From: Candidatus Dormiibacterota bacterium
Lineage (GTDB): Bacteria; Chloroflexota; Dormibacteria; Aeolococcales; Aeolococcaceae
Length of the DNA stretch: 64,000 nt
Assembly: GCA_035652335.1 (NCBI GenBank)
Contig: DASRDZ010000077.1
Span: 17,025-81,024, forward strand
Direction of reading: 5' to 3'
A model generated the notes under the pieces. That model was not told the DNA's origin. It did no database searches and saw only the letters and a list, made by a program, of their open reading frames with translations. The translations under genes were made by a program, and so were the position numbers. This document shows positions 1 through 16,557 of the stretch, in pieces (position 1 is the first letter of the stretch; each line of letters starts with the position of its first letter).

Positions 1-341
1 TGGGCTCGCTCTGGGGGCCGGTGCTGGGCGCGGTCTACCTCGGCTTCCTGCTCAGCTCCACCAACGTGCTGGTCGGCTTCCTGGCCAGCGGGGGCGGCGT
101 GGTCTTCGTGCTGCTGCTCGCGCCTGGCGGGTTCGTGCAGCTCCTGGCCGCAACCCGCGACGCCATGCTGCGGCGGGTGGCGATGCGCCATCGCGTCCAC
201 GCGCCGGGACTGATCGCCGAGGCCGCGCTCGAGGGCCGGGCGGTGACGCCGATCGCCCCGCTGCGCTCCGGCGGCGGCGGGCGCGCCCACGTGCCGGTGC
301 GCTACCGGCTCGACGCCGATGCGGCCGGAGCGCCGGAATGA
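1..341 (+). CDS. C-terminal fragment of a branched-chain amino acid (Liv-type) ABC transporter permease. The gene starts upstream of the window.
   Basis: The hydrophobic tail (...GPVLGAVYLGFLLSSTNVLVGFLASGG...) is typical of the LivM/LivH permease C-terminus. Its stop overlaps the next start (ATGA at 338-341). Confidence 0.5.
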   Translation, partial: GSLWGPVLGAVYLGFLLSSTNVLVGFLASGGGVVFVLLLAPGGFVQLLAATRDAMLRRVAMRHRVHAPGLIAEAALEGRAVTPIAPLRSGGGGRAHVPVRYRLDADAAGAPE

Positions 342-3300
342 TCGCCACCCGCCCGCCGGTGCCGTCGGAGCGTCTGGTGGCGCAGGGCGCCGCCTACACG
401 CCGCCCGCCGAGGAGGAGAACCCCTTCGCCGAAGGGCTCGACGCGCTGGAGCGCGGCCCGCGCCTCCGCGACCGCCTGGGGCTGTACGTGAGCCAGGTCA
501 ACCCCTGGTCGGTGGCCGCCGGGTACGCGGTCACGCCGCTGCTCGTGGTCGGCCTGCTCCAGCTGCTCGGCAACGCCGACTACCAGGCGCTCTTCGTGCT
601 CATCCCCCAGATGCGCCCGAGTTTCGGCTACGACCTGCAGTTTCTCGTGGTCTTCAACTACGTCCTGCAGGTGAGCCAGACCCTGGGGGCGCCGCTGATG
701 GGCTTCGTCGCCGACCGGGTGCGGCGCGTCTGGATGCTGCGCGCCGGCGGCATCGTCGCCCACCTCGGCTCCATCACCATGGGCTTCTCGGCCGGCCCGG
801 GACAGCTCCTCGCCGGACGCGCCATCGCCACCGGCGGCCAGGTGGTCGCCCAGCCCGCGGCGATGCCCCTGCTCACCGACTGCTACCCGCCGGAGCGGCG
901 GGCGCGCGCCATCGGCTTCGTCATGCAGTGCGGCAGCCTGGGCGCGGTGCTCTCGCCCATCGTCATCGGCGTCATCGCCGCGGGCTACGGGTGGCGCACC
1001 GCGTTCATCGTGCTGGGCGCCTTCTCGCTGGCGCTGACGGGGCTGTACTTCACCGTCCGCGAGCCGGTGCGGGGCGAGCAGGACCGCCTGGCCATGGGCG
1101 CCGGCGCCGACGTGGCGCAGCACGAGCAGGCGCCCGCGGGATGGAAGGAGTCCTGGCGTGCCCTCAACAGCGTGCAGACGCTGCGCCGCATCTGGTTCGC
1201 CATGCCATTCCTCTCCGCGGCGAGCTTCATCTTCGTGCTGCTGCCCATCTACTTCTCGGTGGAGTGGCATCTCGGCGCGGCCGCCTACGGCCTGGTGGCG
1301 GCGGCCGAGGCGGCGGTGACCCTCGCCGCGCAGGTGCTGGTCAGCGTGCTCACCGAGCGCATGCTCGCCGAGCGACCTGCACGGGTGATGGGGTTGGTCG
1401 GGGTGATCTGCGTCGTGCTGATGGCGGCGCTGCTGCTCTGCGCGCTGGCGCCGTCGCTCTGGATCGCCGTGCTCGCGGCGTGCGTCGCCGGCGCCTGCTC
1501 GCTGCTCGTCAACCCGGGCTTCAGCCCGCCGCTGCTGTCGGTGGTCTCGCTGGTTGCGCCGGCGCGCATCCGGGCGATGGGCATGACCAGCTACGCGCCC
1601 TGGCAGCTGCTCTCCTTCCCCATCCTCTTCTACGGGGTCGGCGCCATCCAGAGCGCGGGCTGGTCGACCCGCATGCAGCTCCTCCCCTACCTGCCCCTGT
1701 TCCTCGTCGCCGCCGTGATCCTGGCCACCGGCGGGCTGCACGTCGCCGCCGACATGCGCTCCGCTCTGGCCGCCAGCATGGCCGACGAGGAGGCGCGACG
1801 GGCCCGCCAGTCCGGACGTCGCAAGCTGCTGGTGTGCCGCGACGTCGACGTCGTCCACGAGGGTGCGCGCATCCTCTTCGGCGTCGACCTCGACGTCCAC
1901 GAGGGCGAGATCCTCGCCCTGCTCGGCACCAACGGCGCGGGCAAGTCGACGCTGCTGCGCGCCATCGCGGGCGTGCAGGAGGCGTCGAGCGGCGCCATCC
2001 TCCTCGACGGTGCGGACATCACCCACTCGCCGCCGCACCTCACCACCGAGCGCGGCGTCGCGCTGGTGCCCGGCGGGCGCGCCGTCTTCCCGCGGCTCAC
2101 CGTCGCGGAGAACCTGCGCCTGGCGGCCGCCGGCGTCGCCCCCGACGATCGCGGCTCGCGCGTCGAGGCGGTGCTCACCCTGTTCCCGGTGCTGCGCACC
2201 CGCATGGGCCAGCTCGCCGGTGACCTGAGCGGCGGCGAGCAGCAGATGCTGGCGCTCTCCCAGGCGTTGCTGCAGCACCCCCGCCTGCTCCTCGTCGACG
2301 AGATGAGCCTCGGGCTGGCGCCGATGGTGGTCGACCAGCTGCTCGACGCGCTGCGGCGCATCCACGCGGGCGGGACGACGATCGTCATCGTCGAGCAGTC
2401 CGTCAACGTCGCGCTGACCGTCGCCGACCGCGCCGTGTTCATGGAGAAGGGGCGCGTCGTCTTCGAGGGCGCCACGGCGGAGCTGCTGCAGCGGGGCGAC
2501 CTGGCGCGCAGCGTCTTCCTGGGGCAGAGCCGCGCCAGTGCGGGCGGCACGCTGAGCGGCACGGCGCGACGGCACGGCGCCGCGGATGCGGCGGACGCGG
2601 AGGTGCTCCGCGTCGACCGTCTGGGGGTGCGCTTCGGCGGCGTCGACGCGCTGCGCGAGGTGACCCTCAGCGTCGGCGGCAACGAGATCGTCGGGGTGAT
2701 CGGGCCCAACGGTGCCGGCAAGTCCACGCTCTTCGACGCCATCTCCGGGTTCGTGGCACCCTCGGCAGGAACGGTCGTCGCCTTCGGCGAGGACGTCACC
2801 GCGCTCCCCCCCGAGGCACGCGCACGCCGCGGACTGGTGCGCTCCTTCCAGAACCTGCAGCTCTTCGGCGCCATGACGGTGCGCGAGGTCATCGCCCTCG
2901 CCCTGGAGCGCACCGCCTCCGACCTGGAGGGCCTGGGCGCGGCGCTGCGGCTGCCCGGTGCGCGCCGCATGCAGCGGCGCACCGCGCGGCGCATCGACAA
3001 CCTCCTCGACGGGCTCGGGCTGCGCCCCAACGCCGAGCAGTTCATCGGCGAGCTCTCCACCGGGACGCGACGCATCGTCGACCTCGCCTGCCTGCTCGCC
3101 GCCGAGCCGCGGCTGCTGCTGCTCGACGAGCCCTCCAGCGGCCTGGCGCAGAGCGAGACCGAGGAGCTGGGTCCGCTGATCGGGCGCATCGCCAAGGAGG
3201 CGGGCTGCAGCATCCTGCTCATCGAGCACGACCTGCCACTGGTGACCGCGGTGGCGACGCGGATGGTGGCCATGGACCAGGGACACGTCATCGCCGACGG

Positions 3301-3394
3301 ACCGCCGCGCGCGGTCGTCGAGGATGCCGCGGTGGTGCGCGCCTACCTGGGCGCGTCCACGGCGGCGCTGAACCGATCGGGGAGGATCTCATGA
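338..3394 (+). CDS. Three-domain fusion. An N-terminal MFS-like polytopic membrane domain is followed by a LivF-type and then a LivG-type ABC ATPase domain.
   Basis: The N-terminal ~480 aa is hydrophobic and carries MFS-like motifs (GRAIATGG; PPERRARAIG). Walker A LLGTNGAGKST plus LSGGEQQMLAL is LivF-like. A second Walker A IGPNGAGKST plus LSTGTRRIVDLA and LLLLDEPSSGLA is LivG-like. It is one uninterrupted 1018-aa ORF. Confidence 0.7.
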   Translation: MIATRPPVPSERLVAQGAAYTPPAEEENPFAEGLDALERGPRLRDRLGLYVSQVNPWSVAAGYAVTPLLVVGLLQLLGNADYQALFVLIPQMRPSFGYDLQFLVVFNYVLQVSQTLGAPLMGFVADRVRRVWMLRAGGIVAHLGSITMGFSAGPGQLLAGRAIATGGQVVAQPAAMPLLTDCYPPERRARAIGFVMQCGSLGAVLSPIVIGVIAAGYGWRTAFIVLGAFSLALTGLYFTVREPVRGEQDRLAMGAGADVAQHEQAPAGWKESWRALNSVQTLRRIWFAMPFLSAASFIFVLLPIYFSVEWHLGAAAYGLVAAAEAAVTLAAQVLVSVLTERMLAERPARVMGLVGVICVVLMAALLLCALAPSLWIAVLAACVAGACSLLVNPGFSPPLLSVVSLVAPARIRAMGMTSYAPWQLLSFPILFYGVGAIQSAGWSTRMQLLPYLPLFLVAAVILATGGLHVAADMRSALAASMADEEARRARQSGRRKLLVCRDVDVVHEGARILFGVDLDVHEGEILALLGTNGAGKSTLLRAIAGVQEASSGAILLDGADITHSPPHLTTERGVALVPGGRAVFPRLTVAENLRLAAAGVAPDDRGSRVEAVLTLFPVLRTRMGQLAGDLSGGEQQMLALSQALLQHPRLLLVDEMSLGLAPMVVDQLLDALRRIHAGGTTIVIVEQSVNVALTVADRAVFMEKGRVVFEGATAELLQRGDLARSVFLGQSRASAGGTLSGTARRHGAADAADAEVLRVDRLGVRFGGVDALREVTLSVGGNEIVGVIGPNGAGKSTLFDAISGFVAPSAGTVVAFGEDVTALPPEARARRGLVRSFQNLQLFGAMTVREVIALALERTASDLEGLGAALRLPGARRMQRRTARRIDNLLDGLGLRPNAEQFIGELSTGTRRIVDLACLLAAEPRLLLLDEPSSGLAQSETEELGPLIGRIAKEAGCSILLIEHDLPLVTAVATRMVAMDQGHVIADGPPRAVVEDAAVVRAYLGASTAALNRSGRIS

Positions 3395-4398
3395 CGCAGC
3401 TCCGGCCGTTCTCGGCCACAACTCCGGCGCTCGACCCGGCCTCGTTCCGGGCCCGCTTCGAGGCGATGGCGGCCAACATGCAGCGGGTCATCAAGGGCAA
3501 GCCCGAGGTGGTGCGCATGGTGCTCACCGCCGTGCTCGCCGAGGGCCACGTCCTGCTGGAGGACCTGCCAGGCACCGGCAAGACGATGCTGGCGCGCAGC
3601 CTGGCCCAGACCATCGACGTCCCCACCGCGCGCGTGCAGTGCACCCCCGACCTGCTGCCCTCCGACGTCACCGGCTCGACGATCATCGACATGCAGACCA
3701 GCAACTTCGTCTTCAAGCCCGGCCCGCTCTTCACCAGCGTGCTGCTGGTCGACGAGGTCAACCGGGCCACGCCGAAGACGCAGAGCGCGTTGCTGGAAGC
3801 CATGCAGGAGCGCGCGGTCACCGTCGACGGCGTCACCCATCCGCTGCCCCGCCCCTTCCTGATGATCGCCACCCAGAACCCCATCGAGCTGGCCGGGACC
3901 TTCCCGCTCCCCGAGGCGCAGCTCGACCGCTTCCTCTTCAAGCTCTCGGTGGGCTATCCCGACCGCGGCGCCGAGGCGGAGGTGCTGCGCGCCAACATCG
4001 CCGACGAGGCGATCGCCGACCTGCGCCCCGTGGCCACCACCGGCGACGTGCTGCAGCTGGTGGAATGGGCGCGCGGGATCACCGTCAGCGAGCCGGTGAT
4101 GATGTACATCATCGACCTCTGCCAGGCGACGCGCAGCGATCCCTCGTTGCTGATCGGCGCCAGCACCCGTGCTTCGCTCGCCCTGATGCGCGCCGCGCGC
4201 GTGGTGGCCGCGTCGCAGGGACGCGAGGACGTCTACCCCGACGACGTGCGCCACGTGCTCAGCGCGGTGTTCGCCCACCGCCTGGTGCTCACCCCCGACG
4301 CGCAGCTGCGCGACGAGACCGTCGACAAGGTGGTCGAGCGCATCGTCGGCCGCGTCAAGCCGCCGCTCGGCGTGGGCGGGGAGAGCGCCCCGGCATGA
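3391..4398 (+). CDS. moxR: MoxR-family AAA+ ATPase
   Basis: Walker A LPGTGKT, LLVDEVNRA and TQNPIE motifs, with MoxR-like length and layout. The start overlaps the upstream stop (ATGA). Confidence 0.9.
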   Translation: MTQLRPFSATTPALDPASFRARFEAMAANMQRVIKGKPEVVRMVLTAVLAEGHVLLEDLPGTGKTMLARSLAQTIDVPTARVQCTPDLLPSDVTGSTIIDMQTSNFVFKPGPLFTSVLLVDEVNRATPKTQSALLEAMQERAVTVDGVTHPLPRPFLMIATQNPIELAGTFPLPEAQLDRFLFKLSVGYPDRGAEAEVLRANIADEAIADLRPVATTGDVLQLVEWARGITVSEPVMMYIIDLCQATRSDPSLLIGASTRASLALMRAARVVAASQGREDVYPDDVRHVLSAVFAHRLVLTPDAQLRDETVDKVVERIVGRVKPPLGVGGESAPA

Positions 4399-5651
4399 TC
4401 GGCGCCCGGCGCCGCGACACGGAAGCAGGAGCGGGCGCTCTCGCGCGCCTCGAACAGAGGCTCGGCCTGTCCGCCAACGGCCTCGCAGTGAGCGGCTTCG
4501 CGGTGCTGGGCTGGATCGTCGCGCGCGCGCTGGGTGGACGGGCGCTGTTCCTGCTCGTCTACGTGGCGCTGCTGCTGGTCGGCGCGGCCTGGTGGATCGC
4601 GCGGCGGCGTCGCGCCCTGCAGGCGGAGCGCTCGCAGCTCCCCACCCGCGTGCGCGAAGGACAGACGGTGCTCGCGGAGATCACCCTGCGCTCGCGCCGC
4701 CGGCTGACGTCGTTCGTCGTCGAGGAGCGGCTCGACGACGCGCTGGGGTCACCGGTGCGCGTCGCCGTCGGCACGCTCTCGCCCGATCGCGACGTGCACC
4801 ACCAGTACAGCATCCGCCCGCGGCGCCGCGGCGTGTATCGCGTCGGTCCGCTGGAGGCGGAGTGGACCGACCCCTTCGGCCTGGCGCGCAGCCGCCAGCC
4901 GCTGCTCGACGCAACCGAGATCATCGTGCACCCCTCCACCGAGGTGGTCGTCGACCGTCCCACCGCGCGCAAGTGGGAGGACCCGCCGGTGCGGCCGCCG
5001 CACAGCCGCGCCTGGCCCGCGGGGTTCGAGTTCTATGGCATGCGCGACTACGTCGTCGGCGACGACCTGCGCCGCGTCGTCTGGCGCGCGTCGGCGCGCA
5101 CCGGCCGCCTGCTGGTGCGCGAGTTCGAGCAGGGCATCACCGACCGCATCGTCGTCGTGCTCGACACCGACCGCACCTGGCACCGTCCCGGCGAGGTGTC
5201 CGACACCTTCGAGGCGGCGGTGCGCTGCGCGGCGTCGCTGGGCGTCCGCCACCTCCAGGACGGCTTCAGCGTCGGGCTGGAGTCCAACTCGGCGCGCCTG
5301 GCGGTGGACCTGCGCGGGCTGCGCGCGCGCATCCCGCTGCTCGACGAGCTGGCGCGCGTGCAGCGCGAGTCGACGTCGCTGCGCGAGTCGCTGGAGAGGC
5401 TGCTGCGGGTGCGCGCAGGCGTGGCCCACCACGTGGTGATCACGCCGCACCTCGACGCGGACAGCGCGGGACGGCTGCGGCTGCTCGTCGAGAAGGGCGG
5501 ATCGGTGCTCGTCGCCGCGGTGGTGTGGGAGGAGTCCGACCCGCTCACCGTGCGGCGCGCGGTGGAGATGGGCGCGCAGGTGGTCGAGGTGCGTCCCGGC
5601 GCGGCGCTGGGCACGGTGTTCTCGCGTGCGGTGGGCGCAGGATCACGATGA
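4395..5651 (+). CDS. DUF58-family (vWA-like) protein. It is the usual partner of MoxR.
   Basis: It has the N-terminal TM and the hallmark YxxGDDLRRVxWRASARTGRLLVREFE motif. ATGA overlap with moxR. The six-frame ORF is N-extended and was trimmed to the ATG at 4395. Confidence 0.8.
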   Translation: MIGARRRDTEAGAGALARLEQRLGLSANGLAVSGFAVLGWIVARALGGRALFLLVYVALLLVGAAWWIARRRRALQAERSQLPTRVREGQTVLAEITLRSRRRLTSFVVEERLDDALGSPVRVAVGTLSPDRDVHHQYSIRPRRRGVYRVGPLEAEWTDPFGLARSRQPLLDATEIIVHPSTEVVVDRPTARKWEDPPVRPPHSRAWPAGFEFYGMRDYVVGDDLRRVVWRASARTGRLLVREFEQGITDRIVVVLDTDRTWHRPGEVSDTFEAAVRCAASLGVRHLQDGFSVGLESNSARLAVDLRGLRARIPLLDELARVQRESTSLRESLERLLRVRAGVAHHVVITPHLDADSAGRLRLLVEKGGSVLVAAVVWEESDPLTVRRAVEMGAQVVEVRPGAALGTVFSRAVGAGSR

Positions 5652-8590
5652 GCTTGATCGGCGACCCGGTTCGCGACGTCGACGCGGTTGCCGACACGGT
5701 TCCGGTCGCCATCGCCGAGAACACAGAGGCGGTGACCAGCGTCGCCGCCGAGGACTCGCCCCCCGTCCCGCTGCTGCGCACCCTGGCCGCCGCCGCGCTG
5801 AGCACCGCCGCGGCGGCGTGGATGACCGGCGGCATCTTCCGCGGCCCGGAGGCCGCGCGCGGCCTCGGCGCCCTCGGCATCGCCGTCGCTGCCGTCCTGA
5901 CGCTGCTCGGCATGCGCACCCGCCGCACCACGCTGATGCAGCTGCTCGTCGTCCCCGCGGCGGTGGTGCTCGGCGCGCTGCTCGTCCTGCCCAGCACCGG
6001 GGGCAGCAGCACCATCCCCTCGCTGGTCGGCGACGCACTGCACGCCGGCGGGATCCTGCAGCCGCCCATCGCGCTCGACCCCGGCTGGCGGCTGGTGCTC
6101 GCCGTCCTCTTCGCGGGCATCTGCTCGGCGTCGACGACGCTGGCGCTGAGCCTCGACCGGCCCATGCTCGGGGTCGCCCTGCCGGTGCCGGTGGTGGCCG
6201 TCGCGGCACTGGTGCAGCCACCCGACGCGCAGCTCCTCTCCGTCGGCGGCGCGGTGGTGCTGCTCGCCGCGGCGCTGGCCGTCGCCTACGGCGCCGACCT
6301 CTCGCGCGCGTCGTCGCTCGGCCTCGCCTTCGAGCGCGGACGGCTGCTGCGCGGTGCGGGCCTGGTGGCCGCGCTGCTCGTCGCCGTCGCCGGCCTCGGC
6401 CAGGTGAGCGCGCTCTTCCCGCAGCCGGACACCACCCGCGTCATCCCGCCGCAGCCGCCCCAGCCCGCCCCGCCGGCGCCCGACCACGCCCTCTTCGCCG
6501 TGCGCTTCGGCGGAGCGGACACCGCGCCCCTGCGCACCGGCGTTCTGGACGTATACGACAGCAACTCCGGGGAGTGGCTGCTGCCCTCCTATGACACCTC
6601 GCGCATGGACACCGTGCGTGCACCGGCCAGCCTGCCGGGCGGCCCCGGCGGACGGGGCGTGCACGTCGAGGTGACCATCCGCGACTTCCCCGGCCACGTC
6701 CTGCCCACCGTCCCCGGCGCCAACCACCTGGGCGGCACCTCCGACACGCTGCGCGTCGACCCGCGCACCGGGCAGATCGAGCTGGCCGACCAGCCCACCT
6801 CGGCGGGCTTCGACTACACGCTCGACGCCCCGTCGCTGCCGAGCGCCCAGCAGCTGGGCAGCGCACCCAGGCCGCCGCAGTCGATGCGCGACTTCCTGGC
6901 CATCCCCGCGCCGCCACCCGGTGTGGCCAGGCTGCTCGCCGCCGCACCGGCCAACCCCTTCAACCGCATGCAGTTCCTGCGCACCGCGCTGTTCGGCAAG
7001 GTGGTGGCGGCGGGAAGCGGCGCACCCGGGCCCATCCCGGCGCAGCGCGTCGACGAGATGCTGAGCGGCGGCAAGGCCAACCCGTACGAGATCACCGCGG
7101 CCGAGGCCATGCTGGCGCGCTGGGCGGGGGTGCCCTCGCGCATCGCCTTCGGCTACGAGCCGCAGACGGCGGGCGACGGCACCTACGAGGTGCATCCGCG
7201 CGACGGCGGGGCCTGGCTGGAGACGTGGTTCCAGGGCTACGGCTGGCTGCCCATCCTGGGCGTCCCGCCCCACGCGCAGCCGACCTTCGACCGCAGCCAG
7301 CGCAACGCCGACAGCGGCATCACCCCGACCAACAACCTCGGCCTCCTGGTGTACGTCCCTGTGCAGGTGCCCACCTCGCTGGCGCTGTACCAGCAGGCGC
7401 AGTGGTGGCTGCTGCGCGCCCTGCCCGCCGCCGCCGGCGCGGCGCTGCTGGTGCTGCTGTATCCGGTGCTGCTGAAGCGGCTCCGCGCAGCACGCCGGAC
7501 GCGCTGGGCCCTGCGGCGCGGACCCGCGGAACGCCTCGCCGTCGCCTACGCCGAGTTCCGCGACGCGATGCGCGACCTTGCCGCCGGCGACCCGGTGCTG
7601 ACGCCGCTGCTCTTCCTGCGCGAGATCGAGCCCGACGACGAGCATGCCGAGCTGGCCTGGCTGGTGACGCGCGCGCTGTGGGGCGACCTGCGCCGCGACC
7701 TCCGCCCCGGCGACGCCGACGCCGCCGAGCTGCTGGCGCGCTCGGTGCGCCGCCGGGTGGTGCGCGCCCAGTCCCCCCTCAGCCGCATGCTGGCGGCGAT
7801 CGCGCGCACCTCGCTGCGCGAGCCCTACAGCAGCGAGATCCCCAACCTCTGGCCGCGGCTGCGCATCAGCGCGCCGCGCCCCACCGCGGCGCTGCCGAGG
7901 CGGCTGCTGCTGCGCCGGCGGGTCGCCGGCGCGGGCGCGACGCTGCTGCTCGTCGCCGTCTGCACCGCGCTGCTGCCGCCGGGCGGCACCACACCCACCG
8001 CGGCGCGGACGGTGACGGCGCAGCAGGACGCGACGCTGAACGCGCTCGTGCCACCCGCCGTCGGCCCGCTGGCGCTGCTGCGCCAGACGTCGGTGGAGAG
8101 CGCGTATCGCACGGCGGGCGCGCAGTCGCTGCTCACCGCCGGCCACGTCTACACCGTCCACAACGGCGACGTCATCGAGGGCTCGGTGCAGGTCTCGCTG
8201 CTGCGGCCCGACCTCGACCGCAGCTCCTCCGACCTCGTCGACGGCCTGCGCCAGCGCCTCGGCGGCGGCAACTTCGTCGCCATGACCGAGCGCGTTCCGC
8301 TCGACGACGGCAGCTGCGCCTGCCCAGGACAGTTCACCGAGGTGGCCGTCAAGGACGAGCCGCTGCGCTTCCACCAGCGCATCTGGGTCTCGGTGCTGGC
8401 CGACCAGCGCATCTACTTCTGGTTCCCGCCCGCGGCGAGCACGCTGGAGATCGTGGTGCTGCGCAGCGAGTTCCCCGCGCTCACCGCCGACGAGCTGGTG
8501 CTGACCATGAGCGACCGCCAGCACGGCGCGCCGCTCGTGGCCGTGCCGGTGCCGCCCATCGCGGCCGAGCTGCCGGGGGCGTCGCCATGA
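5648..8590 (+). CDS. Large polytopic membrane protein with a transglutaminase-like core domain
   Basis: Multi-TM N-terminus. The core segment (PYEITAAEAMLARWAGVPSRIAFGYEP...GGAWLETWFQGYGWLPILGVPP) resembles a transglutaminase-like fold, but the Cys and His positions appear substituted. ATGA overlap with DUF58 at 5648. Confidence 0.7.
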   Translation: MSLIGDPVRDVDAVADTVPVAIAENTEAVTSVAAEDSPPVPLLRTLAAAALSTAAAAWMTGGIFRGPEAARGLGALGIAVAAVLTLLGMRTRRTTLMQLLVVPAAVVLGALLVLPSTGGSSTIPSLVGDALHAGGILQPPIALDPGWRLVLAVLFAGICSASTTLALSLDRPMLGVALPVPVVAVAALVQPPDAQLLSVGGAVVLLAAALAVAYGADLSRASSLGLAFERGRLLRGAGLVAALLVAVAGLGQVSALFPQPDTTRVIPPQPPQPAPPAPDHALFAVRFGGADTAPLRTGVLDVYDSNSGEWLLPSYDTSRMDTVRAPASLPGGPGGRGVHVEVTIRDFPGHVLPTVPGANHLGGTSDTLRVDPRTGQIELADQPTSAGFDYTLDAPSLPSAQQLGSAPRPPQSMRDFLAIPAPPPGVARLLAAAPANPFNRMQFLRTALFGKVVAAGSGAPGPIPAQRVDEMLSGGKANPYEITAAEAMLARWAGVPSRIAFGYEPQTAGDGTYEVHPRDGGAWLETWFQGYGWLPILGVPPHAQPTFDRSQRNADSGITPTNNLGLLVYVPVQVPTSLALYQQAQWWLLRALPAAAGAALLVLLYPVLLKRLRAARRTRWALRRGPAERLAVAYAEFRDAMRDLAAGDPVLTPLLFLREIEPDDEHAELAWLVTRALWGDLRRDLRPGDADAAELLARSVRRRVVRAQSPLSRMLAAIARTSLREPYSSEIPNLWPRLRISAPRPTAALPRRLLLRRRVAGAGATLLLVAVCTALLPPGGTTPTAARTVTAQQDATLNALVPPAVGPLALLRQTSVESAYRTAGAQSLLTAGHVYTVHNGDVIEGSVQVSLLRPDLDRSSSDLVDGLRQRLGGGNFVAMTERVPLDDGSCACPGQFTEVAVKDEPLRFHQRIWVSVLADQRIYFWFPPAASTLEIVVLRSEFPALTADELVLTMSDRQHGAPLVAVPVPPIAAELPGASP

Positions 8591-9648
8591 TGCCGCGCCT
8601 CCGCATCCGCCGCCCGATCCTCGCTCCGGTGCGCGCACACCGCGCCCTCGTCGTGGTCGCGCTGGCGCTGACGGCCTGCGGGCCGACGCCGCCCTTCGAG
8701 CTGGCCGTGCACGAGGTGCCCGGCGACGTGGTCTACGGCGGGCAGTCGACGCCGGCACCGAGCGCCAGCGCGGGCAGCGGCCCCTCCGCGCTTGCCCCCG
8801 GTGCGCCGCCGCTCATCTACGGCGCACCGGCGCCTCCGCCGCAGGCGACGTTCGCGTCGATCCCGGCCACAACCCCCGCGCCGGTCTGCCCGGCCGCGCC
8901 CGTCGACGCCGTCCCCGCGCTGCAGGCCGACCCCTGGGCGAGCGTGCCGCCCGTCGCCACCGCCTACCTCTGGCGCACCGACGTCGCGCAGTCCTGGTAC
9001 ACCCTCGGCGGCGGCCCGAAGCTGGCCTTCCCCGCCACCTTCACCCACACCGTCGCGAACGTGAGCCCCGTCGACGCCACCACCGGCGCCTACACCTTCG
9101 ACGTGGCCACCTCCGCGGGCGGCGTCACCGGCCTGCAGAAGGTCACCGACTCCTTCGAGGTGATCCCGCCGCCGCAGGGCACCAGCGACGTGCAGGGCGT
9201 GTCGACGTCGCAGGCCGCCGGGCTCTACCTCACCGCCATGCAGACGCTCGACCCCAGCGATCCCCGGTCGCGGGTGACCAGGTTCGCGCCGCCGATCCTG
9301 CTCATGCAGTTCCCCGGCAACGAGCTTCCCACCTGGAACACGGCCGGCACCGACACCGCCACCGGCACCACCATCCAGCTGGCCGGCGCGGTGCTCGGGC
9401 ACGTCAGCGTCGACGCCTGCGGCACGGTGATCGACGCCTGGCAGGTGCATGCCACCGGGAGCCTGGTCGGCCCCAACCAGAACCTGAGCCTCGACCTCAC
9501 CTACGACGTGGCCACACAGTACGGCGGCATCATCGTGGCCGAGCAGGACGGCATCGGCGGCACCGAGCTCTCCGGCAGCGCGATGCAGAGCGTCGGCTCG
9601 CACGACGTGTCGTTCATCGCCGTGCCGCCGCAGCGGAGGGCAGGCTGA
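8587..9648 (+). CDS. Putative lipoprotein of unknown function
   Basis: Signal peptide plus lipobox (LALTACG), a Pro/Ala-rich linker and a Thr/Gly-rich extracytoplasmic domain. ATGA overlap with the upstream gene. Confidence 0.5.
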   Translation: MMPRLRIRRPILAPVRAHRALVVVALALTACGPTPPFELAVHEVPGDVVYGGQSTPAPSASAGSGPSALAPGAPPLIYGAPAPPPQATFASIPATTPAPVCPAAPVDAVPALQADPWASVPPVATAYLWRTDVAQSWYTLGGGPKLAFPATFTHTVANVSPVDATTGAYTFDVATSAGGVTGLQKVTDSFEVIPPPQGTSDVQGVSTSQAAGLYLTAMQTLDPSDPRSRVTRFAPPILLMQFPGNELPTWNTAGTDTATGTTIQLAGAVLGHVSVDACGTVIDAWQVHATGSLVGPNQNLSLDLTYDVATQYGGIIVAEQDGIGGTELSGSAMQSVGSHDVSFIAVPPQRRAG

Positions 9649-11360
9649 TGCAGCGCCCGCGCGGAACGCCCCGGCCGCCGCGCGCCGTGGCACTGGCCAA
9701 CGGCGGCGTCGCGCTGTCGATCCTCGTGGTGGTCATCGCCTTCGGGGTTGCGGTGGCGCAGATCCATCCACCGGGCATCGCCGCCTTCGCGCCCGACGTG
9801 CAGCAGCACGCCCACCAGAAGAGCCTCACAGGGCAGCAGGGCGCCTCTGCGCTGGGCGCCTCCGCTCCCACCGGCGTCCCGGCGACGGCGACGCCCGCGC
9901 CGTCGCCGACGCCGGGCGCGACGCCCACTCCCAACGCGCTCGCCGGCCGTCCCGCCCAGGTGCGCTGCTACGGCTCGCCGCCGCACCAGACCGAGGACCC
10001 GCAGTCGCCGCCCTGCCGGCAGTCGTTCCAGGGAGGCAACGGCGGCAGCACCTCGCGCGGGGTCACCGGCGACACCATCTACGTCGCCTGGCCGTCGCTG
10101 GAGATGGGCTTCCCCGGCGTGGAGTACCCCAAGTACACCCAGGACTTCGCCGACTACCTCAACTCCCACTTCGAGCTGTACGGGCGCAAGATCGCCCTGG
10201 TCAAGTACCAGGTGACCAACAGCGGCTTCAGCACCGCCACCGCCCAGAAGCAGGTGCAGGACGCCGACTACACCGCCAACCAGCTCAACGGCGCCACCGG
10301 CGTCTTCGCCTCCATCGGCTACGCGCCCGTCGGCGGCACCGCGTACTACTACTACGACCGCCTCGCCCAGGACGGCGTCCTCAGCGTCCAGTCGTCGCCG
10401 CTGCTGGAGACCGAGGCGCACCTCGCCTCCAGCCCCTACCTGTGGTCGACGCTGCCCGGCTACGACACCGTCGAGGCCAACCTCGGCGACCTCTACTGCA
10501 ACCAGCTCAAGGGACACCCGCCGCAGTACGCCGGCCAGCCGACCCCGCCCGCCACCGGCTGGGGAACGCGCAAGATCGGCGTCTACTACGAGACCACCAC
10601 CAACAGCGTGGCCGTCGACCCGCAGCCGCTGGTGAACACGCTGAACGCCTGCGGCGTGCAGGTCACCGCGCACGCGCTCAGCGACGACAGCGCCGACAAC
10701 ACCGCCGCCGTGAACCAGATGCAGCAGAGCCAGGAGACGACCATCGCCTGCCTCTGCAACGCCACCCAGCTCGGCGACCTGATGAGCGCCGCCTCCAAGC
10801 AGACCTTCTTCCCCGAATGGCTGGTGCAGAACGAGCAGTTCCTCTCCGTCGACTCGGCGGGCCCGCAGACGGCCTTCCCAACCGAGCAGCAGGGCCACGT
10901 CATCGGCATCGACTACAACAACGAGTTCCTCGACCCCAGCAACGAGTTCTGGTACCGCGCCGCCAGGGAGGCGGACTCCACGGTGACCTACAACCAGAGC
11001 TCGCAGAACGTCTACGCCTACTACCGCTACGAGGAGCTGCTGGTGCTGGCCAGCGGAATCCAGCAGGCCGGCCCCGACCTCACCCCGCAGACCTTCCAGC
11101 AGGGCCTCTACGACACCCGGTACAGCAACGTGGGCCACGGCGCGGCGCCCTACTACCAGGCCGCCGTCGGCTTCGGGCCCGGCAAGCACTCCTTCTACGA
11201 CGACGCCGCGGCCATCTGGTTCAGCACCACCGGCAACAGCTACACCGGCAACCAGGGCCAGAACGGCACCTACTGCTACTCGCACCTCGGTGACCGCTCC
11301 GCCGACTGGACGGAGCCGAGGCCACTCTTCTATGGCGGCCAGACATGTCGAGGAGGATGA
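9648..11360 (+). CDS. Membrane-anchored extracytoplasmic protein with a type-1 periplasmic-binding-protein-like (Leu/Ile/Val-binding-type) domain. It may be the solute-binding protein for the Liv-type transporter.
   Basis: N-terminal TM anchor (ALSILVVVIAFGVAVA), a Pro/Ala/Thr linker, then a domain resembling ABC substrate-binding proteins. TGATG overlap with the upstream lipoprotein stop. Confidence 0.45.
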   Translation: MQRPRGTPRPPRAVALANGGVALSILVVVIAFGVAVAQIHPPGIAAFAPDVQQHAHQKSLTGQQGASALGASAPTGVPATATPAPSPTPGATPTPNALAGRPAQVRCYGSPPHQTEDPQSPPCRQSFQGGNGGSTSRGVTGDTIYVAWPSLEMGFPGVEYPKYTQDFADYLNSHFELYGRKIALVKYQVTNSGFSTATAQKQVQDADYTANQLNGATGVFASIGYAPVGGTAYYYYDRLAQDGVLSVQSSPLLETEAHLASSPYLWSTLPGYDTVEANLGDLYCNQLKGHPPQYAGQPTPPATGWGTRKIGVYYETTTNSVAVDPQPLVNTLNACGVQVTAHALSDDSADNTAAVNQMQQSQETTIACLCNATQLGDLMSAASKQTFFPEWLVQNEQFLSVDSAGPQTAFPTEQQGHVIGIDYNNEFLDPSNEFWYRAAREADSTVTYNQSSQNVYAYYRYEELLVLASGIQQAGPDLTPQTFQQGLYDTRYSNVGHGAAPYYQAAVGFGPGKHSFYDDAAAIWFSTTGNSYTGNQGQNGTYCYSHLGDRSADWTEPRPLFYGGQTCRGG

Positions 11361-11367
11361 CGCCCGC

Positions 11368-13434
11368 ATGATCCCCACCGTCGAGGACCTGGCCAGCTCG
11401 CCGCTGGTCCACCGCTTCGGCGACGTCTTCAACCCTCCGGGCCTGACCAACTTCCTCGGCACCGTGCAGTGCGACGTCGACGTCTGCGCCTTCCGCAACC
11501 TCTGGTTCCCGCCCTTCGTCTGCGCCGACAACGCCACCGCGGGGCTCTTCGTCGACGACGTCTACTTCCCCACCACCGGCACCCCGGTCACCTTCACCTG
11601 GTACCCCGACCGCATCGAGCGCAGCGCCACCTACCGCGGCCTGCGCCTTCGCAGCACGCTGTCCCTGGCCACGCAGCGCAAGGCGGCGCTGCTGCACCTC
11701 GCCGTCACCAACGAGTCGGGCGTGCATCGCCAGGTGCGCATCCGCCTCGGGCTGCAGAGCAACGTCGGCAAGCTGCCGGGACCGTGGCTGGTCTCCCCGC
11801 CGCAGGAGACCAACAACGAGGCGTGGGTGCAGCCGGAGCGGGGCCGGGTGCACTTCGCGGCGCGGCGCAGCGACGCCCACCTGCTGCAGGGGTCGGTGCC
11901 GCATCCCGAGGGGATCGACCCCGAGAGCCTCTGGTTCACCCTGCAGCTCGACCCCGGCGAGACCTGGCAGGCGACCCTGCTCACCGCCATCGGCGAGACC
12001 GCAGGCGAGGCGGAGCGCACCTACGACGACCTCGCCGCCGACGTGCGCGGCGCGTTCGCGCGGGTCCGCGCGCAGTGGGACGAGGAGCTGCGCTGCGTCT
12101 TCACTCCGCACAACGGCCGCTACAGCGGGTGGCTGCCCGAGCTCGACACCGACGACGAGGACGTCTTCCGCCTCTACGCCATGGGCGTGCTCGGCGTCGT
12201 CTACTTCCGCCGCGACTCGCCGCACAGCCGGTACGGGCGCACCTACGTGACCCTGATGCCGCGCTACTGGCCCACGGTCACCTTCCTCTGGGACTACAGC
12301 CTCAGCTCGCTGGTGCACGCGCTGCTCGACCCCGAGGTGATGCGCGGCAACCTGGAGCGCTGGATGCGCTTCGACATCCACGACCACTTCGGCACCGAGT
12401 ACCTGAGCGGCGAGCCGGTGGGTCCCTGGTACTCGGTCAACGACTACGCCTGGATCGGCACCGCCCGCGACTACCTGCGCTGGAGCGGCGACCTGCAGTG
12501 GCTCCGCCGCGAGCTGCCCTCGGGAGACTCCGGCGCCCCCATCACCGTCGCCGAGCAGCTGGTCGCCTGCGCCACCAACTGGCTGCGCTTCCAGGGGACC
12601 AACGGCCTCGCCGACTACGGCGACATCAACAACCTGCTGGAGTGCGTCACCACCTACATCCACGAGGTGGCCAGCCTCAACGCCGCCAACGTCTTCGGCA
12701 TGCGCTTCGCGGCCGAGGCCTGCGCCGACGACCCGCTGCGGGCCGCCACCCTGAACGACTGGGCGCAGCGGCTGCTCCGGGAGGTGCAGGACCTGTACGT
12801 CGACGGCCGCGGCTACTGGCGCTCGCGCAACCCCGACGGCAGCTCCCGCGAGGTGCGCCACTGCTACGACCTGATCACCGTGCTGAACACCATCCCCGAC
12901 GACCTCAGCGCGGCCCAGCGCCGGGAGATGGCCGACTTCTGGCGGCGCGAGCTGCGCACCCCGGTGTGGATGCGGGCGCTCAGCGGCAGCGATCCCGACG
13001 CCATGCGCAACACCCGTCCCGACCACCAGTGGACGGGGGCCTACACCGCCTGGCCGGCGCTGGCGGTGACGGGCCTGTATCGGATCGGCCGCGTCGATCT
13101 CGCCTTCCCCTGGCTGCGCGGCCTGGCGCGCAGCGCCAACCAGGGGCCCTTCGCGCAGGCCCACTTCAACGAGACCGCGGTCGACCCGGACGCGGGCGGC
13201 GCGCGCAAGGCCCCGCCGGAGATGCCCTACATCACCGACTGGTGCTGCTCCTCGGGGGGCGCCTGGGTGAACATCATCGTCGAGTCGATCTTCGGCGTCC
13301 GCGCCGGGCTGCACGGCATCGAGGCGGAGCCGCAGTTCGGGGCCTTCGACCCCGGCGCCCGGCTGCGCAACCTCCGCCACCAGGGCCGCCTCTACGACGT
13401 CGACGCCCGGGGCCTCCACCCCGCCGGGAGCTGA
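11368..13434 (+). CDS. Large hypothetical protein with a probable (alpha/alpha)6-barrel glycoside-hydrolase-like domain
   Basis: 689 aa that is Trp/Tyr-rich (WPTVTFLWDYSLSSLVHALLDPEVMRGNLERWMRFDIHDHFGTEYLSG...), reminiscent of six-hairpin glycosidases. GGAGGA lies 10 nt upstream of the ATG at 11368. Confidence 0.4.
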   Translation: MIPTVEDLASSPLVHRFGDVFNPPGLTNFLGTVQCDVDVCAFRNLWFPPFVCADNATAGLFVDDVYFPTTGTPVTFTWYPDRIERSATYRGLRLRSTLSLATQRKAALLHLAVTNESGVHRQVRIRLGLQSNVGKLPGPWLVSPPQETNNEAWVQPERGRVHFAARRSDAHLLQGSVPHPEGIDPESLWFTLQLDPGETWQATLLTAIGETAGEAERTYDDLAADVRGAFARVRAQWDEELRCVFTPHNGRYSGWLPELDTDDEDVFRLYAMGVLGVVYFRRDSPHSRYGRTYVTLMPRYWPTVTFLWDYSLSSLVHALLDPEVMRGNLERWMRFDIHDHFGTEYLSGEPVGPWYSVNDYAWIGTARDYLRWSGDLQWLRRELPSGDSGAPITVAEQLVACATNWLRFQGTNGLADYGDINNLLECVTTYIHEVASLNAANVFGMRFAAEACADDPLRAATLNDWAQRLLREVQDLYVDGRGYWRSRNPDGSSREVRHCYDLITVLNTIPDDLSAAQRREMADFWRRELRTPVWMRALSGSDPDAMRNTRPDHQWTGAYTAWPALAVTGLYRIGRVDLAFPWLRGLARSANQGPFAQAHFNETAVDPDAGGARKAPPEMPYITDWCCSSGGAWVNIIVESIFGVRAGLHGIEAEPQFGAFDPGARLRNLRHQGRLYDVDARGLHPAGS

Positions 13435-13590
13435 GCCGGCCCCACCCGAGCGTGCCGTCGCGATCACGTGCGATCGCCGTCGTCGCTCCGTGACCGGGGC
13501 GCGAACGAGCGGCGAAGGGTCGGGCCGTACGGTAGCAGGGCTCCGACGCCCACCGCGCGGAAGCTACGGATCAAAGGAGGTGAAACCCAA

Positions 13591-13782
13591 ATGCTGAGCA
13601 ACCTGTATCTGCGTCTGCGTGAGCTCGTGGCCCGCGCCCAGGAGCGCGAAGAGGGCCAGGGCATGGTCGAGTACGCACTCATCCTCGTCCTCATCGCCAT
13701 CGTGGTCATCGTGATCCTGACCGTGGTGGGCAAGCAGGTCAACAACGTCTTCTCGAACATCAGCAACGGCCTGAACCAGTAG
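13591..13782 (+). CDS. flp: Flp-family type IVb pilin prepilin
   Basis: 63 aa with the classic Flp motif ...[23 protein letters not shown]... AAGGAGG RBS 10 nt upstream. Confidence 0.8.
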
Positions 13783-13804
13783 GTTCGGCTGCTGCCGAGA
13801 CGAA

Positions 13805-13840
13805 GGGCGCCGCCGGGAAACCGGCGGCGCCCTTTTCGTT
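13805..13840 (+). terminator. Rho-independent terminator after flp
   Basis: GGGCGCCGCCGG-GAAA-CCGGCGGCGCCC stem-loop followed by TTTTCGTT. Confidence 0.7.
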
Positions 13841-13852
13841 ATCCTGGGTTGC

Positions 13853-14836
13853 ATGGCCATGCAGTACCGCAACCTGGGGCGCTCCGGGCTCAAGCTGAGC
13901 GTCCTCTCCTTCGGCTCGTGGGTCACCTTCGGCCCGCAGCTGAACAGCGACCTCGCGGCCGAGTGCCTGCAGATCGCCCGTGACGCCGGCGTCAACTTCT
14001 TCGACAACGCCGAGGTCTACGCCGGCGGCCGCTCCGAGCAGATCATGGGCGAGGCGATCCGCTCGCTGGGCTGGAAGCGCCACGAGTACGCCATCTCCAC
14101 CAAGTTCTTCTGGGGGATCCACGACGCCCCCAACATGCGCAACACGCTCAATCGCAAGTACCTGATGCAGGCGATCGACGGCTCGCTGGAGCGCTTCGGG
14201 CTCGACTTCGTCGACCTCGTCTTCTGCCACCGCTCCGACCCCGACACGCCCGTCGAGGAGACCGTCTGGGCGCTGCACGACATCATCGAGCAGGGCAAGG
14301 CGGACTACTGGGGCACCTCGGAATGGCCCGCCGAGCGCATCCTCGCCGCCCACCGCTTCGCCCGCGACAACCACCTGCACGGGCCGGTCATGGAGCAGCC
14401 GCAGTACAACCTCTTCTGGCGCGACCGCGTCGAGAAGGAGTACGCGCCGGTCTACGACGAGACGGGCCTGGGGCTGACCATCTGGAGCCCGCTGGCCTCG
14501 GGGCTGCTCACCGGCAAGTACCTCGACGGCATCCCCGAGGGCAGCCGCTTCGCCCTGCGCGGCTACGACTGGCTCAAGGACACGCTGCTCACCGAGGAGA
14601 ACGTCGCCAGGGTGCGCCGTCTCAAGGACGTCGCCGACCGGCTGGGCTGCTCGCTCACCCATCTCTCGCTCGCCTGGTGCGCGCGCAACCCGCGCGTCAC
14701 CACGGTGATCACCGGGGCCAGCCGCCCCGAGCAGGTCCGCGACAACATGCAGGCGCTCGACGTCCTGCCCCTGCTCACCGACGAGGTGGTCGAGGAGATC
14801 GACGCCGCCATGGGAATGGAGCGCGCCCGGGCCTAG
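13853..14836 (+). CDS. Aldo/keto reductase, Kv-beta subunit-like
   Basis: Full-length AKR fold ([19 protein letters not shown]...[17 protein letters not shown]...), similar to Kv-beta / YajO-type AKRs. Confidence 0.9.
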
Positions 14837-16557
14837 TGCCTCAGCGCGGTGGCTACCGCGCGTCCGGCCAGCAGCAGCACGCTGAGCACCACGTAGCCGC
14901 GCAGCGCCACCATGCCGGCCAGCCGCCCGGCCGTCCACACCGGGCGGCGCAGCTCGGCGAGCGGCGGGGTGCGCCAGAAGGCGCGCTCGTCGTCGAGCGG
15001 TGAGGCGGCCCGCCCACGGGGCACACCCAGCACCACCACGGGTCGCCGCAGCAGGCGCAGCTGCGGGGTTGCTGCCGGAGCTGTCCAGAACCCGCGTTCG
15101 GCGCGGCGCCGCCGCCGGACGCCGCTGAGCCCGACGGCGAGCAGGCCGAGCGCCGCCGCCCCGCCGAGGGCGGCACCCACGCCCACCGCCGGCGCGTCGG
15201 GGTAGAGCGCGGTGACGACCAGCATCCCCGAGAGCGCCAGCAGCGCGGCCACGCTGGTGGCCGCCACCGCGTTGAGCCAGCGGCCGTTCGACCAGGGACC
15301 CAGCACAGCGGTGTCGTTGCAGAGCAGCAGCATGAAGACGGTGGCGCCGGGCAGGAGCAGCCCGGCCAGCACCTGCACGCTGACGGTGACCGCGTCGGGG
15401 TCGAGCCCCGGCAGCAGCACGGCCCCCGCCGTCACCGCCACCACCAGCGTCGCCACCGCGTAGAAGAGCGGCGCCTGGCGCGGCGTGCGGTGCAGCGAGT
15501 GCCGTGCCCCGGTGACGTCGCCGACGGCGTAGGAGGAGGCCATGGCCACGGCGGCCGCCCCGAGCACGGCGCTGTCGAAGAGCAGCAGGGCGAGGAGGTC
15601 GCCGGCGCCGGGACCGAGGTGGCTGCCCACCGCCGCCAGGATGCCGCCGACGTCCTCGCCGTCCGCCACGGCGCCGCCGGCGGCGAAGGCGGAGGCGCTG
15701 ACCGCCATCACCGCCGCCGCGCCGGCCAGCATGAGCACGGTCCCCATGGCGGTGTCGACGCGCGCGTAGGCCAGCCAGCGCGGGGTGATCCGCTTGTCCA
15801 CGGTCGCCGACTGCTGGAAGAAGAGCTGCCAGGGCGCCACCGTGGTGCCCATCAGCGCCACGATGAGCACCACCGCCGACTGCAGGCCCGCGGGGTGGGC
15901 GGGTGCCCCGGGAGTGGTGGCGGCGCCGCCCGCGACGGGATGGGCCAGGAGCAGCAGCGGCATGAGGGCGACGTCGACCGCGACCAGCAGGAGCATGACC
16001 CGCTCCCAGCGCTGGAAGCCGCCGGCCAGGGTGGCCGCGATCAGCACCAGGGCCGCCACACCCACCGCCGGCGCGGAGGGGACGCCGAGATGCTCGGCGG
16101 CGATGCGCACCCCGATGAACTCGGTGACCAGGGTGAGGACGTTGAGGAGGAGCAGGTCGCCGAGCGAGAAGGCGCCCCACAGCCGGCCGAAGCGCTCGAC
16201 GATGAGGCGGGCGTGCCCCACGCCGCTCACCGCGCCCAGCCGGGCCGCCATCTCCTGGTTGACGAAGAGCACGAGCCCGAGGGGCACGAGCACCCAGAGC
16301 AGCCGTATCCCCTGCTCCTGGCCCGCCTGTGCGTAGGTGGCCACGCCCCCCGCGTCGTTGCCGGCGATCAGCGCCAGCAGGCCGGGGCCCATGACGGCGG
16401 CGAGCACCCCCAGGCGGCCGCGGAGGGTGCGCGGCGGCCAGAGCTGGCGCCAGCGCAGCGTCCCCCACGCACCTCGGATGTCACCGAGATGGGCGGCGTC
16501 GATGACCGCCGAGTCGAGGGTCTCGTCATCGAGGAGGTTGGCCACGCGGCTGCTCAC
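14833..16557 (-). CDS. mntH: NRAMP-family divalent metal (Mn2+/Fe2+) transporter
   Basis: Conserved NRAMP motifs ([19 protein letters not shown]; [23 protein letters not shown]) and ~11 TM segments. Its 3' end converges on the AKR gene with a 4-nt overlap. Confidence 0.9.

Follow-up and report, generated by a model that had tools for sequence, protein, structure and literature searches.

We describe here an operon at the start of a 64,000-nucleotide stretch of DNA (the window) from a Candidatus Dormiibacterota bacterium (assembly GCA_035652335.1, contig DASRDZ010000077.1, positions 17,025 to 81,024). It appears to join a Liv/Urt-type ATP-binding cassette (ABC) importer to a MoxR-family ATPase, a DUF58 protein, a lipoprotein and a TgpA-like membrane protein whose transglutaminase core has lost its catalytic triad. 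We consider it rather probable that the products of this one operon build a composite envelope machine, of which one half is the Liv-type importer and the other the MoxR/DUF58/TgpA-like/lipoprotein group. The MoxR-DUF58-transglutaminase trio is already known; judged from the sequences, what is new is its invariant Liv-type importer with a fusion of an MFS domain to two nucleotide-binding domains, the new lipoprotein family and the triad-less transglutaminase.

Organisation of the operon

The genes of the block all lie on the plus strand. The window opens within a fused LivH-LivM permease gene, truncated at the window edge, of which the 3' end (112 codons, positions 1 to 341) remains and whose TGA overlaps the ATG of the next gene, g0 (338 to 3394), encoding an MFS_1-ABC-ABC fusion protein of 1018 amino acids (aa). 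There follow g1 (3391 to 4398; MoxR-family AAA+ ATPase, 335 aa), g2 (4395 to 5651; divergent vWA-like DUF58 protein, 418 aa), g3 (5648 to 8590; TgpA-like polytopic membrane protein, 980 aa), g4 (8587 to 9648; lipoprotein, 353 aa), g5 (9648 to 11360; protein with a type-1 periplasmic-binding-protein fold, 570 aa) and g6 (11368 to 13434). The last encodes a cytoplasmic (alpha/alpha)6 protein resembling glycoside hydrolases and phosphorylases, to which the original prediction had assigned 689 aa; its coordinates give 688 aa.

The GC content of the window is approximately 73%, and third-position GC values of 0.85-1.00 are found exactly in the frames of the proposed plus-strand genes, in an unbroken series. 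Public collections hold identical copies of all seven translations g0-g6. NCBI entries exist for g0, g1 and g3-g6 (HZS15615, HZS15616 and HZS15618-HZS15621, from a Candidatus Dormibacteraeota metagenome-assembled genome (MAG)), under the names MFS transporter (g0), MoxR family ATPase (g1), transglutaminase-like domain-containing protein (g3) and hypothetical protein (g4-g6); the 418-aa call of g2 is matched solely in JGI/ENA.

The original prediction had described six consecutive genes, between positions 3391 and 13434, as a single unit joined throughout by overlapping stop and start codons. Third-position GC, Pfam matches and the deposited calls agree on these six co-directional genes, and the sequence contains the ATGA overlaps at 4395, 5648 and 8587 and the TGATG at 9648. 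At the last junction the overlap series gives way to a 7-nucleotide spacer (stop codon at 11358-11360, ATG of g6 at 11368), and the ATG of g6 is preceded by GAGGAGGA. The unit is also larger than proposed. Two further ATGA overlaps are found upstream, at 338 (permease/g0) and 3391 (g0/g1); therefore the block begins before the window and, as read from the sequence, at least eight genes form one long operon. The genes that follow (for a small Flp/Fap pilin, an aldo/keto reductase, an Nramp protein on the minus strand and an ArsR regulator) mark g6 as the end of the block. A scan of positions 1-15000 of both strands with promoter and terminator consensus sequences yielded no match and is uninformative for a non-model phylum with 73% GC, so the operon boundaries rest on the overlaps and on synteny.

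Conservation in related genomes

Species representatives of GTDB were scanned with a profile of the g3 family, which revealed 175 relatives. Eighty of these loci were fetched, and the presence and order of genes in them were called by tblastn with the window proteins and the permease of locus L001; with L081 and L082 the set comprises 82 loci. The loci come mostly from MAGs, the one named strain among them being Jiangella asiatica 5K138 (L029); L083 comes from a Rathayibacter plasmid. By the titles of their records, they belong to Dormibacterota, Acidimicrobiia, Mycobacteriales, Frankiales, Nitriliruptoria, Jiangella asiatica and one Chloroflexota MAG.

The permease, the MFS-ABC-ABC gene, the MoxR gene, the DUF58 gene and the dead transglutaminase gene are present in every locus with enough flanking sequence, and g4 was detected in most of these. 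The order permease-g0-g1-g2-g3-g4 occurs in about 50 loci, and a permuted order, g1-g2-g3-g4-permease-g0, in about ten loci of Actinomycetota, mostly titled Acidimicrobiales. A single genome may carry up to five loci (five in BP_115, four each in SMAG_U9929 and SRP136066_co1_186). All eight genes recur, co-directional and overlapping, in L081, at 76% identity, and in L082, at 50%. In the latter, on a Dormibacteria-like farmland contig, the operon is interrupted between the MoxR and DUF58 genes by an IS481-type transposase gene (7766-8695; rve and HTH_23/28/29/32 domains). Taken across these loci, the gene content indicates that the transporter is the invariant partner of the MoxR module and not merely its upstream neighbour.

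The original prediction left open whether the genes downstream of the trio would be absent from orthologous loci. The answer differs from gene to gene: g4 is present in most loci and a g5-type binding protein in roughly half, and g6 is absent even from the close relatives L001 and L002, whose g3 proteins are 74% and 65% identical to that of the window.

The TgpA-like protein has lost its catalytic triad

The g3 protein matches Transglut_core (PF01841) at residues 466-535 (1.4e-9, 38.6 bits against a cutoff of 23). Its match to TgpA_N (PF11992, DUF3488; 1.5e-6, 27.9 bits) falls below the cutoff of 30, and most of its homologues carry a precomputed PF11992 match. Its only relative in PDB is the periplasmic domain of TgpA of Pseudomonas aeruginosa (6g49), found with the family profile at E = 2.3e-5. 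A scan for transmembrane (TM) segments indicates about seven hydrophobic segments or TM helices at the N-terminus, followed by the transglutaminase-like domain (residues ~259-585) outside the cell, a TM helix (586-612), an Arg-rich helical cytoplasmic region, another TM helix (758-780) and a C-terminal extracytoplasmic domain (~781-980) found solely in long forms of the protein; short forms also exist. The transglutaminase-like domain is placed outside the cell, as in TgpA, because of the hydrophobicity pattern and the Arg-rich stretch that follows the helix 586-612 (positive-inside rule).

The transglutaminase-like core itself (residues 466-545, nucleotides 7043 to 7282) was compared with relatives that retain the triad, a set consisting of one plasmid gene plus the literature. 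In the HMMER alignment to TgpA the position of the catalytic Cys is a gap beside Pro479/Tyr480; in an ungapped BLASTP alignment to the DUF3488-transglutaminase of the Rathayibacter plasmid, it corresponds to the invariant Pro479 (nucleotides 7082-7084). The catalytic His is replaced by Gly521 (7208-7210) in the alignments to both proteins, and the catalytic Asp/Glu by Leu537 (7256-7258) in that to the Rathayibacter protein. No Cys, His or Asp stands at the triad columns in any of the 99 retrieved homologues, down to 34% identity; all 99 share instead the replacement motif PYEITAAEALLARWAGVPSRIGYGY ... RPxxGAxWLEAYFxGxGWVPIVGxPP. The segment replacing the Cys region (PYEITAAEA), with its invariant charged residues, is among the most conserved motifs of the family.

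The replacement of the catalytic Cys and His, which the original prediction had proposed from the window sequence, is thus borne out by the alignments to 6g49 and the Rathayibacter protein and by the 99 homologues. A displaced pair of catalytic residues elsewhere in the domain is excluded: the extracytoplasmic domain of the family has no invariant Cys or His, and that of g3 itself has no Cys at all. These data point to a loss of the triad that is ancient and family-wide, with the replacement residues under strong constraint. The transglutaminase core of g3 is to all appearance dead, a homologue by fold that should not be filed as an enzyme, and since Cys, His and Asp are all lost, the extracytoplasmic domain would serve only as a binding or scaffold element.

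The MoxR ATPase and the DUF58 protein

The g1 protein gives very strong matches to AAA_3 (2.1e-60, 202.8 bits, cutoff 27) and AAA_lid_2 (3.3e-20, 72 bits, cutoff 22.7), has intact Walker A (PGTGKT) and Walker B (within LLVDEVNR) motifs, contains no TM segment and is placed in the cytoplasm. A match to bpMoxR is weak (32.5 bits), far below the AAA_3 score. The gene of its DUF58 partner overlaps the stop codon of g1, and this pairing is retained in related loci. In g2 the DUF58 domain (PF01882) covers residues 216-376 (5.5e-12, 45.8 bits against a cutoff of 23.4); two N-terminal TM helices (hydrophobic segments 25-71) precede it, and the domain is predicted to be cytoplasmic. The motif GDD..RR..W / VRE.EQGI / lDtd is conserved in 67 orthologues. 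The position of the vWA metal ion-dependent adhesion site reads LDTDRT, conserved as lDtd...H in the same orthologues, and differs from the canonical DxSxS. Together with the Transglut_core match of g3, these hidden Markov model (HMM) results establish the MoxR-DUF58-transglutaminase trio that had been recognised from the sequence.

The transporter and its binding protein

The C-terminus of the permease in the window matches the end of a 762-aa open reading frame (ORF) of L001. Upstream permease ORFs of the related loci have 760-790 aa and two BPD_transp_2 domains (L001, 762 aa; L029, 786 aa). The g0 protein is composed of a complete MFS_1 domain of the 12-TM type (residues 73-420), in which MFS motif A is retained (GFVADRVRR), a LivF/UrtE-like ATPase (500-717) and a LivG/UrtD-like ATPase (754-1006). 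Pfam matches are to MFS_1 (1.2e-34), ABC_tran in two stretches (9e-59) and BCA_ABC_TP_C (29.5 bits against a cutoff of 25.5), and the best NCBIfam models are UrtE, LivG, UrtD and LivF. The Walker A, Walker B and signature motifs of both ATPases, as read from the translation, are intact. Between the related loci, identity is 49-63% in the ATPase part but 25-46% in the MFS part, which diverges much faster.

None of g4, g5 and g6 had a significant match when searched directly against Pfam, NCBIfam or PDB, so homologue sets and structure prediction were needed for these three proteins. The g5 protein has an N-terminal TM anchor (residues ~13-35), a disordered Pro/Thr/Ala linker and an invariant pair of cysteines (Cys107/Cys123). 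Its AlphaFold2 model (pLDDT 84, pTM 0.81) was matched by Foldseek to LivJ/LivK-type structures (4q6b, 4n03, 3eaf and 3td9) with E values of about 1e-13 and TMt of about 0.7. Peripla_BP_6 (PF13458), to which g5 itself shows no direct match, is matched by 16 of its 86 homologues (the Jiangella orthologue at 2.7e-9). The model and the homologue matches agree with the earlier description of g5 as a TM-anchored type-1 periplasmic binding protein (PBP), and the N-terminal helix and disordered linker suggest that it is a membrane-tethered receptor.

The transporter half can thus be assigned to the Liv/Urt (HAAT) class of binding-protein-dependent ABC importers, with the fused permease, g0 and g5 as its predicted components. 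The two BPD_transp_2 domains of this class are seen in the ORFs of L001 and L029, the window holding the last 112 codons only; the LivG- and LivF-type ATPases with a BCA_ABC_TP_C tail are present in g0, and the type-1 binding protein is represented by g5 as judged by modelled fold and family, not by a direct HMM match.

Gene position lends strong support to the suggestion that g5 is the solute-binding protein otherwise lacking from the Liv-type transporter. Members of the g5 family are encoded directly ahead of the permease in about 20 loci (including that of Jiangella), after g4 in Dormibacteria and some Actinomycetota, or divergently. The alternation between a place after g4 and one ahead of the permease fits a cognate receptor.

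A second kind of binding protein was also observed. A family-5 solute-binding protein (SBP_bac_5), normally the partner of Opp/Dpp-type transporters, is encoded beside the Liv-type transporter in many loci. It lies immediately after g4 in at least 23 of them (e.g. L022, 13869-15536), and in many Actinomycetota loci it begins on the g4 stop codon, at the place of g5. In Dormibacteria it is divergent and upstream (L001, L002, L003, L081 and L082).

The lipoprotein family

The g4 protein carries a lipobox (LTAC) with Cys31, a Pro-rich linker and an all-beta, barrel-like domain (residues ~100-350) with two further invariant cysteines (Cys101 and Cys278). The lipobox Cys is present in nearly all orthologues, in accordance with the original prediction of a lipoprotein, and g4 appears to define a new sequence family. 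Of 61 orthologous loci, 37 retain the 4-nucleotide overlap of g3 and g4, which marks the overlaps as conserved and not a matter of chance. The C-terminal domain of g3 (residues 775-980) was considered as a possible copy of g4 and rejected (hhalign probability 0.5%). Orthologues about twice as long occur in Jiangella asiatica (L029, 12808-14847, 679 aa) and in an actinomycete MAG (L027, 12742-14505, 587 aa), which suggests an added domain or a fusion.

The glycosidase-like protein and other peripheral genes

The g6 protein has no match in Pfam at E<0.1. It belongs to a family of 1379 homologues spread from Ignavibacteria to Planctomycetes, with 52-59% identity across phyla, and annotated as "hypothetical", "glucosidase family" or "MGH1-like glycoside hydrolase domain-containing". 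Among 41 homologues, 20 match MGH1-like_GH (PF22422, best 1.1e-9) and seven the GH94 catalytic domain (PF17167), in agreement with the (alpha/alpha)6-like fold proposed earlier. The g6 profile weakly matches chitobiose phosphorylase, with a layout of an N-terminal beta domain followed by the (alpha/alpha)6 domain. Many Asp and Glu residues are invariant in the family; it could not be aligned reliably with a characterised enzyme, and no characterised member was found among the homologues. The TM scan detected no TM segment, and the protein has no signal peptide.

A g6 gene lies within 10 kb in 15 of the 82 loci, which by our estimate far exceeds the expectation for an unlinked gene. It is co-directional and adjacent in L019, L081 and L082, whereas about 11 Actinomycetota loci have it close by on the opposite strand. 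On this distribution g6 is clearly a variable accessory of the operon. In L082 a gene for a GH78-like protein (17836-20235; Bac_rhamnosid6H and Bac_rhamnosid_N) overlaps the stop codon of the g6 orthologue and thus represents a second glycosidase-like gene; GH78-like proteins are also encoded in L017 (at ~16170) and L004 (at ~1).

Recurrent neighbours of the loci include a SASA-type carbohydrate esterase, DUF4185/DUF5005 proteins, GH78-like proteins, GntR/UTRA regulators and SBP_bac_5. Nine Actinomycetota loci (L022, 16439-18280; L036, 15967-17883; and seven more) encode in addition a protein of ~613-638 aa without a Pfam match (55-75% identity), beside g6, SASA esterase, DUF4185/DUF5005 and GntR/UTRA genes. 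As far as gene neighbourhood can tell, the recurrent neighbours point to substrate-specific, often carbohydrate-related peripheries.

Other genes of the window

The pilin ORF directly after g6 (13468-13782) contains a Flp/Fap domain (1.5e-9), and its true start is probably near position 13590; L081 has a 63-aa gene in the same position. It is followed, between 13853 and 17039, by the genes for an aldo/keto reductase (plus strand), an Nramp transporter (minus strand) and an ArsR-family regulator (plus strand), and this four-gene arrangement after the operon is retained in L081 (76% g3 identity). A second copy of the system was sought in the 64-kb window and none was found. Three unrelated ABC ATPase paralogues, with 28-35% identity to the ATPase domains of g0, occur at ~25.7, 28.4-29.1 and 60.5-61.2 kb, and do not belong to a second MoxR/transglutaminase locus.

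Relationship to known systems

The closest parallel is the cluster of P. aeruginosa in which PA2875-PA2874-tgpA are co-transcribed, within a predicted four-gene cluster PA2875-PA2872; the transglutaminase-fold domain of TgpA is periplasmic, and its transglutaminase activity has been measured (PMC3507681). Both systems have the same order of MoxR, DUF58 and a polytopic TgpA-like protein with an extracytoplasmic transglutaminase fold. However, TgpA keeps the Cys-His-Asp triad that g3 and its 99 relatives lack, g3 carries an additional TM helix and, at its C-terminus, an extracytoplasmic domain, and the ABC transporter, g4 lipoprotein and binding protein of the present operon have not been described in the Pseudomonas cluster.

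In the wider group of three-gene MoxR-vWA-YebA(TGL) operons, membrane-proximal degradation has been proposed, and inactive TGL domains have been treated as peptide binders (Zhang & Aravind 2012, PMC3495828). An AAA_3-type MoxR adjoining a DUF58/vWA partner and a membrane-embedded TGL protein is common to these operons, to the MRP subfamily of MoxR proteins (Snider & Houry 2006, cited in PMC12067865) and to the present locus. The degradation model requires an active TGL peptidase, absent in g3, and included no transporter. The PFNA cluster of bifidobacteria (Pkb2 kinase, FN3 protein, MoxR AAA-ATPase, DUF58 and transglutaminase) likewise combines the same actinobacterial core with lineage-specific surface proteins, these being a Ser/Thr kinase and an FN3 protein in PFNA and a Liv-type importer, a beta-barrel lipoprotein and a PBP here. 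According to Pfam, none of the eight genes encodes a PFNA-type kinase or FN3 protein, or the BatA/BatB vWA and tetratricopeptide repeat (TPR) proteins of the Bat aerotolerance system.

The importer resembles LivJ/LivK-LivHMGF and UrtABCDE in its two BPD_transp_2 domains, LivF/UrtE- and LivG/UrtD-like ATPases, BCA_ABC_TP_C tail and type-1 PBP. It differs from them in that (i) the permeases are fused, (ii) the two ATPases are fused together and to a complete N-terminal MFS domain, (iii) the PBP is highly divergent, with 570 aa, a TM anchor and a long linker, and (iv) the linkage to MoxR/DUF58/TGL genes is obligatory. The likeness of g6 to GH63/MGH1-like and GH94 enzymes is carried by its homologues, g6 itself lying below Pfam detection. 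Within the literature covered, we found no description of a linkage of MoxR/transglutaminase genes with ABC, branched-chain or MFS fusion genes; in Frankia, the MoxR/transglutaminase genes (FRAAL6437-6439) and liv genes (FRAAL5036-5037) are listed at separate loci.

Proposed function and alternative explanations

In the composite machine that we favour, the MoxR-DUF58 pair would act at the cytoplasmic face of g3 and/or of the transporter, by analogy with what is thought of MoxR-vWA pairs, and the ATP it consumes might be used for assembly, gating or remodelling of the complex. Outside the cell, the dead transglutaminase domain and g4 could serve as binding or scaffold elements that keep a ligand or the binding protein in place or present it. 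Cytoplasmic g6 would process imported material, a role that may be played in related loci by other carbohydrate-active enzymes, family-5 binding proteins and GntR/UTRA regulators. This suggests a set of paralogous nutrient-acquisition loci, possibly for glycosides or glycoconjugates.

Several points weigh against this interpretation. The locus is known from sequence, mostly that of MAGs. The substrates usually associated with HAAT transporters and Peripla_BP_6 proteins are amino acids, urea, amides and organic acids rather than glycosides; the carbohydrate reading draws only on neighbouring genes that occur in the minority of loci, and neither g5 nor g6 itself reaches significance in Pfam. A conserved acidic motif (E481, E486 and E525) leaves room for other chemistry in the transglutaminase-fold domain. 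The MoxR module could also serve another client and be merely co-regulated with the transporter.

The last point can be extended to an uncoupled arrangement, in which MoxR, DUF58, the transglutaminase-like protein and the lipoprotein form an autonomous chaperone or quality-control module that shares a transcript with an amino-acid/urea-type importer, g5 serving the importer and g6 being unrelated. Such trios are indeed widespread as stand-alone units (PA2875-PA2874-tgpA, YebA-type operons, the PFNA cluster), and a canonical DUF3488-transglutaminase is encoded on the Rathayibacter plasmid without any ABC genes. We nevertheless regard this arrangement as unlikely. Transporter genes accompany the module in every sufficiently flanked locus, in two phyla, in paralogous copies and in two gene orders, and start/stop overlaps link the junctions across the transporter and MoxR genes; mere adjacency would not outlast so much rearrangement and duplication.

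Slightly more doubtful still is an enzyme with a replaced active site, in which the transglutaminase-fold domain modifies or cleaves an envelope component or an imported substrate by means of, for example, Glu481/Glu486/Glu525 and Arg491/Arg498. These residues are invariant or nearly so, and the conserved PYEITAAEA motif shows strong selection on the site. However, all three triad positions have been lost together, the Cys being replaced by an invariant Pro, and we know of no precedent for a catalytic enzyme of the transglutaminase/papain fold without Cys. Moreover, inactive TGL domains are commonly read as peptide-binding modules (PMC3495828).

Finally, a membrane-proximal system of ATP-dependent protein degradation, or a MoxR-vWA biological-conflict system for defence or sensing, seems very improbable: degradation was proposed by Zhang & Aravind for MoxR-vWA-YebA(TGL) operons (PMC3495828), sensing systems of the MoxR-vWA type that include a transglutaminase are known from Actinomycetota and g1 shows the weak bpMoxR match of 32.5 bits, but the peptidase triad required for degradation is absent (so that, with the nucleophile gone, the proteolysis model is inapplicable as written), Pfam detects no beta-propeller, kinase, FHA or effector domain in g0-g6, PADLOC reports only generic P-loop similarity for g0 and g1 and nothing for g2-g6, and the invariant partner is a nutrient-type importer.

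The composite machine can also be drawn in a more far-reaching form, which we offer as speculation with a small chance of being correct. MoxR, DUF58, the dead transglutaminase and the lipoprotein might constitute an ATP-driven trans-membrane accessory apparatus of an unrecognised class of ABC-importer loci of Terrabacteria, a monoderm counterpart of polysaccharide-utilisation and TonB-type systems. The work of MoxR and DUF58 would be relayed via g3 to the pseudo-enzyme domain and g4; these would capture complex substrates (glycans, glycopeptides), unfold them or pass them on to an interchangeable type-1 PBP or family-5 binding protein, the paralogous loci being tuned to their substrates by peripheral glycosidases, esterases and regulators.

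Implications

Operons in which MoxR is paired with DUF58/vWA and transglutaminase-like proteins rank among the most frequent prokaryotic operons that still await an explanation, and few clients of these chaperone-like machines are known. In the leading model the TGL domain carries out proteolysis close to the membrane, for which it needs an active cysteine. The clade described here may be regarded as a natural "catalysis-off" version of the system, in which the TGL fold has been kept for a non-enzymatic role. The locus also draws attention to three uncharacterised families (the g4 lipoproteins, g5-type PBPs and g6 glycosidase-like proteins), which are abundant in soil Dormibacterota and Actinomycetota. 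Moreover, the operon itself names a candidate client for MoxR-DUF58-TgpA, i.e. a Liv-type ABC importer whose two ATPases are, unusually, fused to an MFS domain, and the question of the target of these proteins thereby becomes directly testable.

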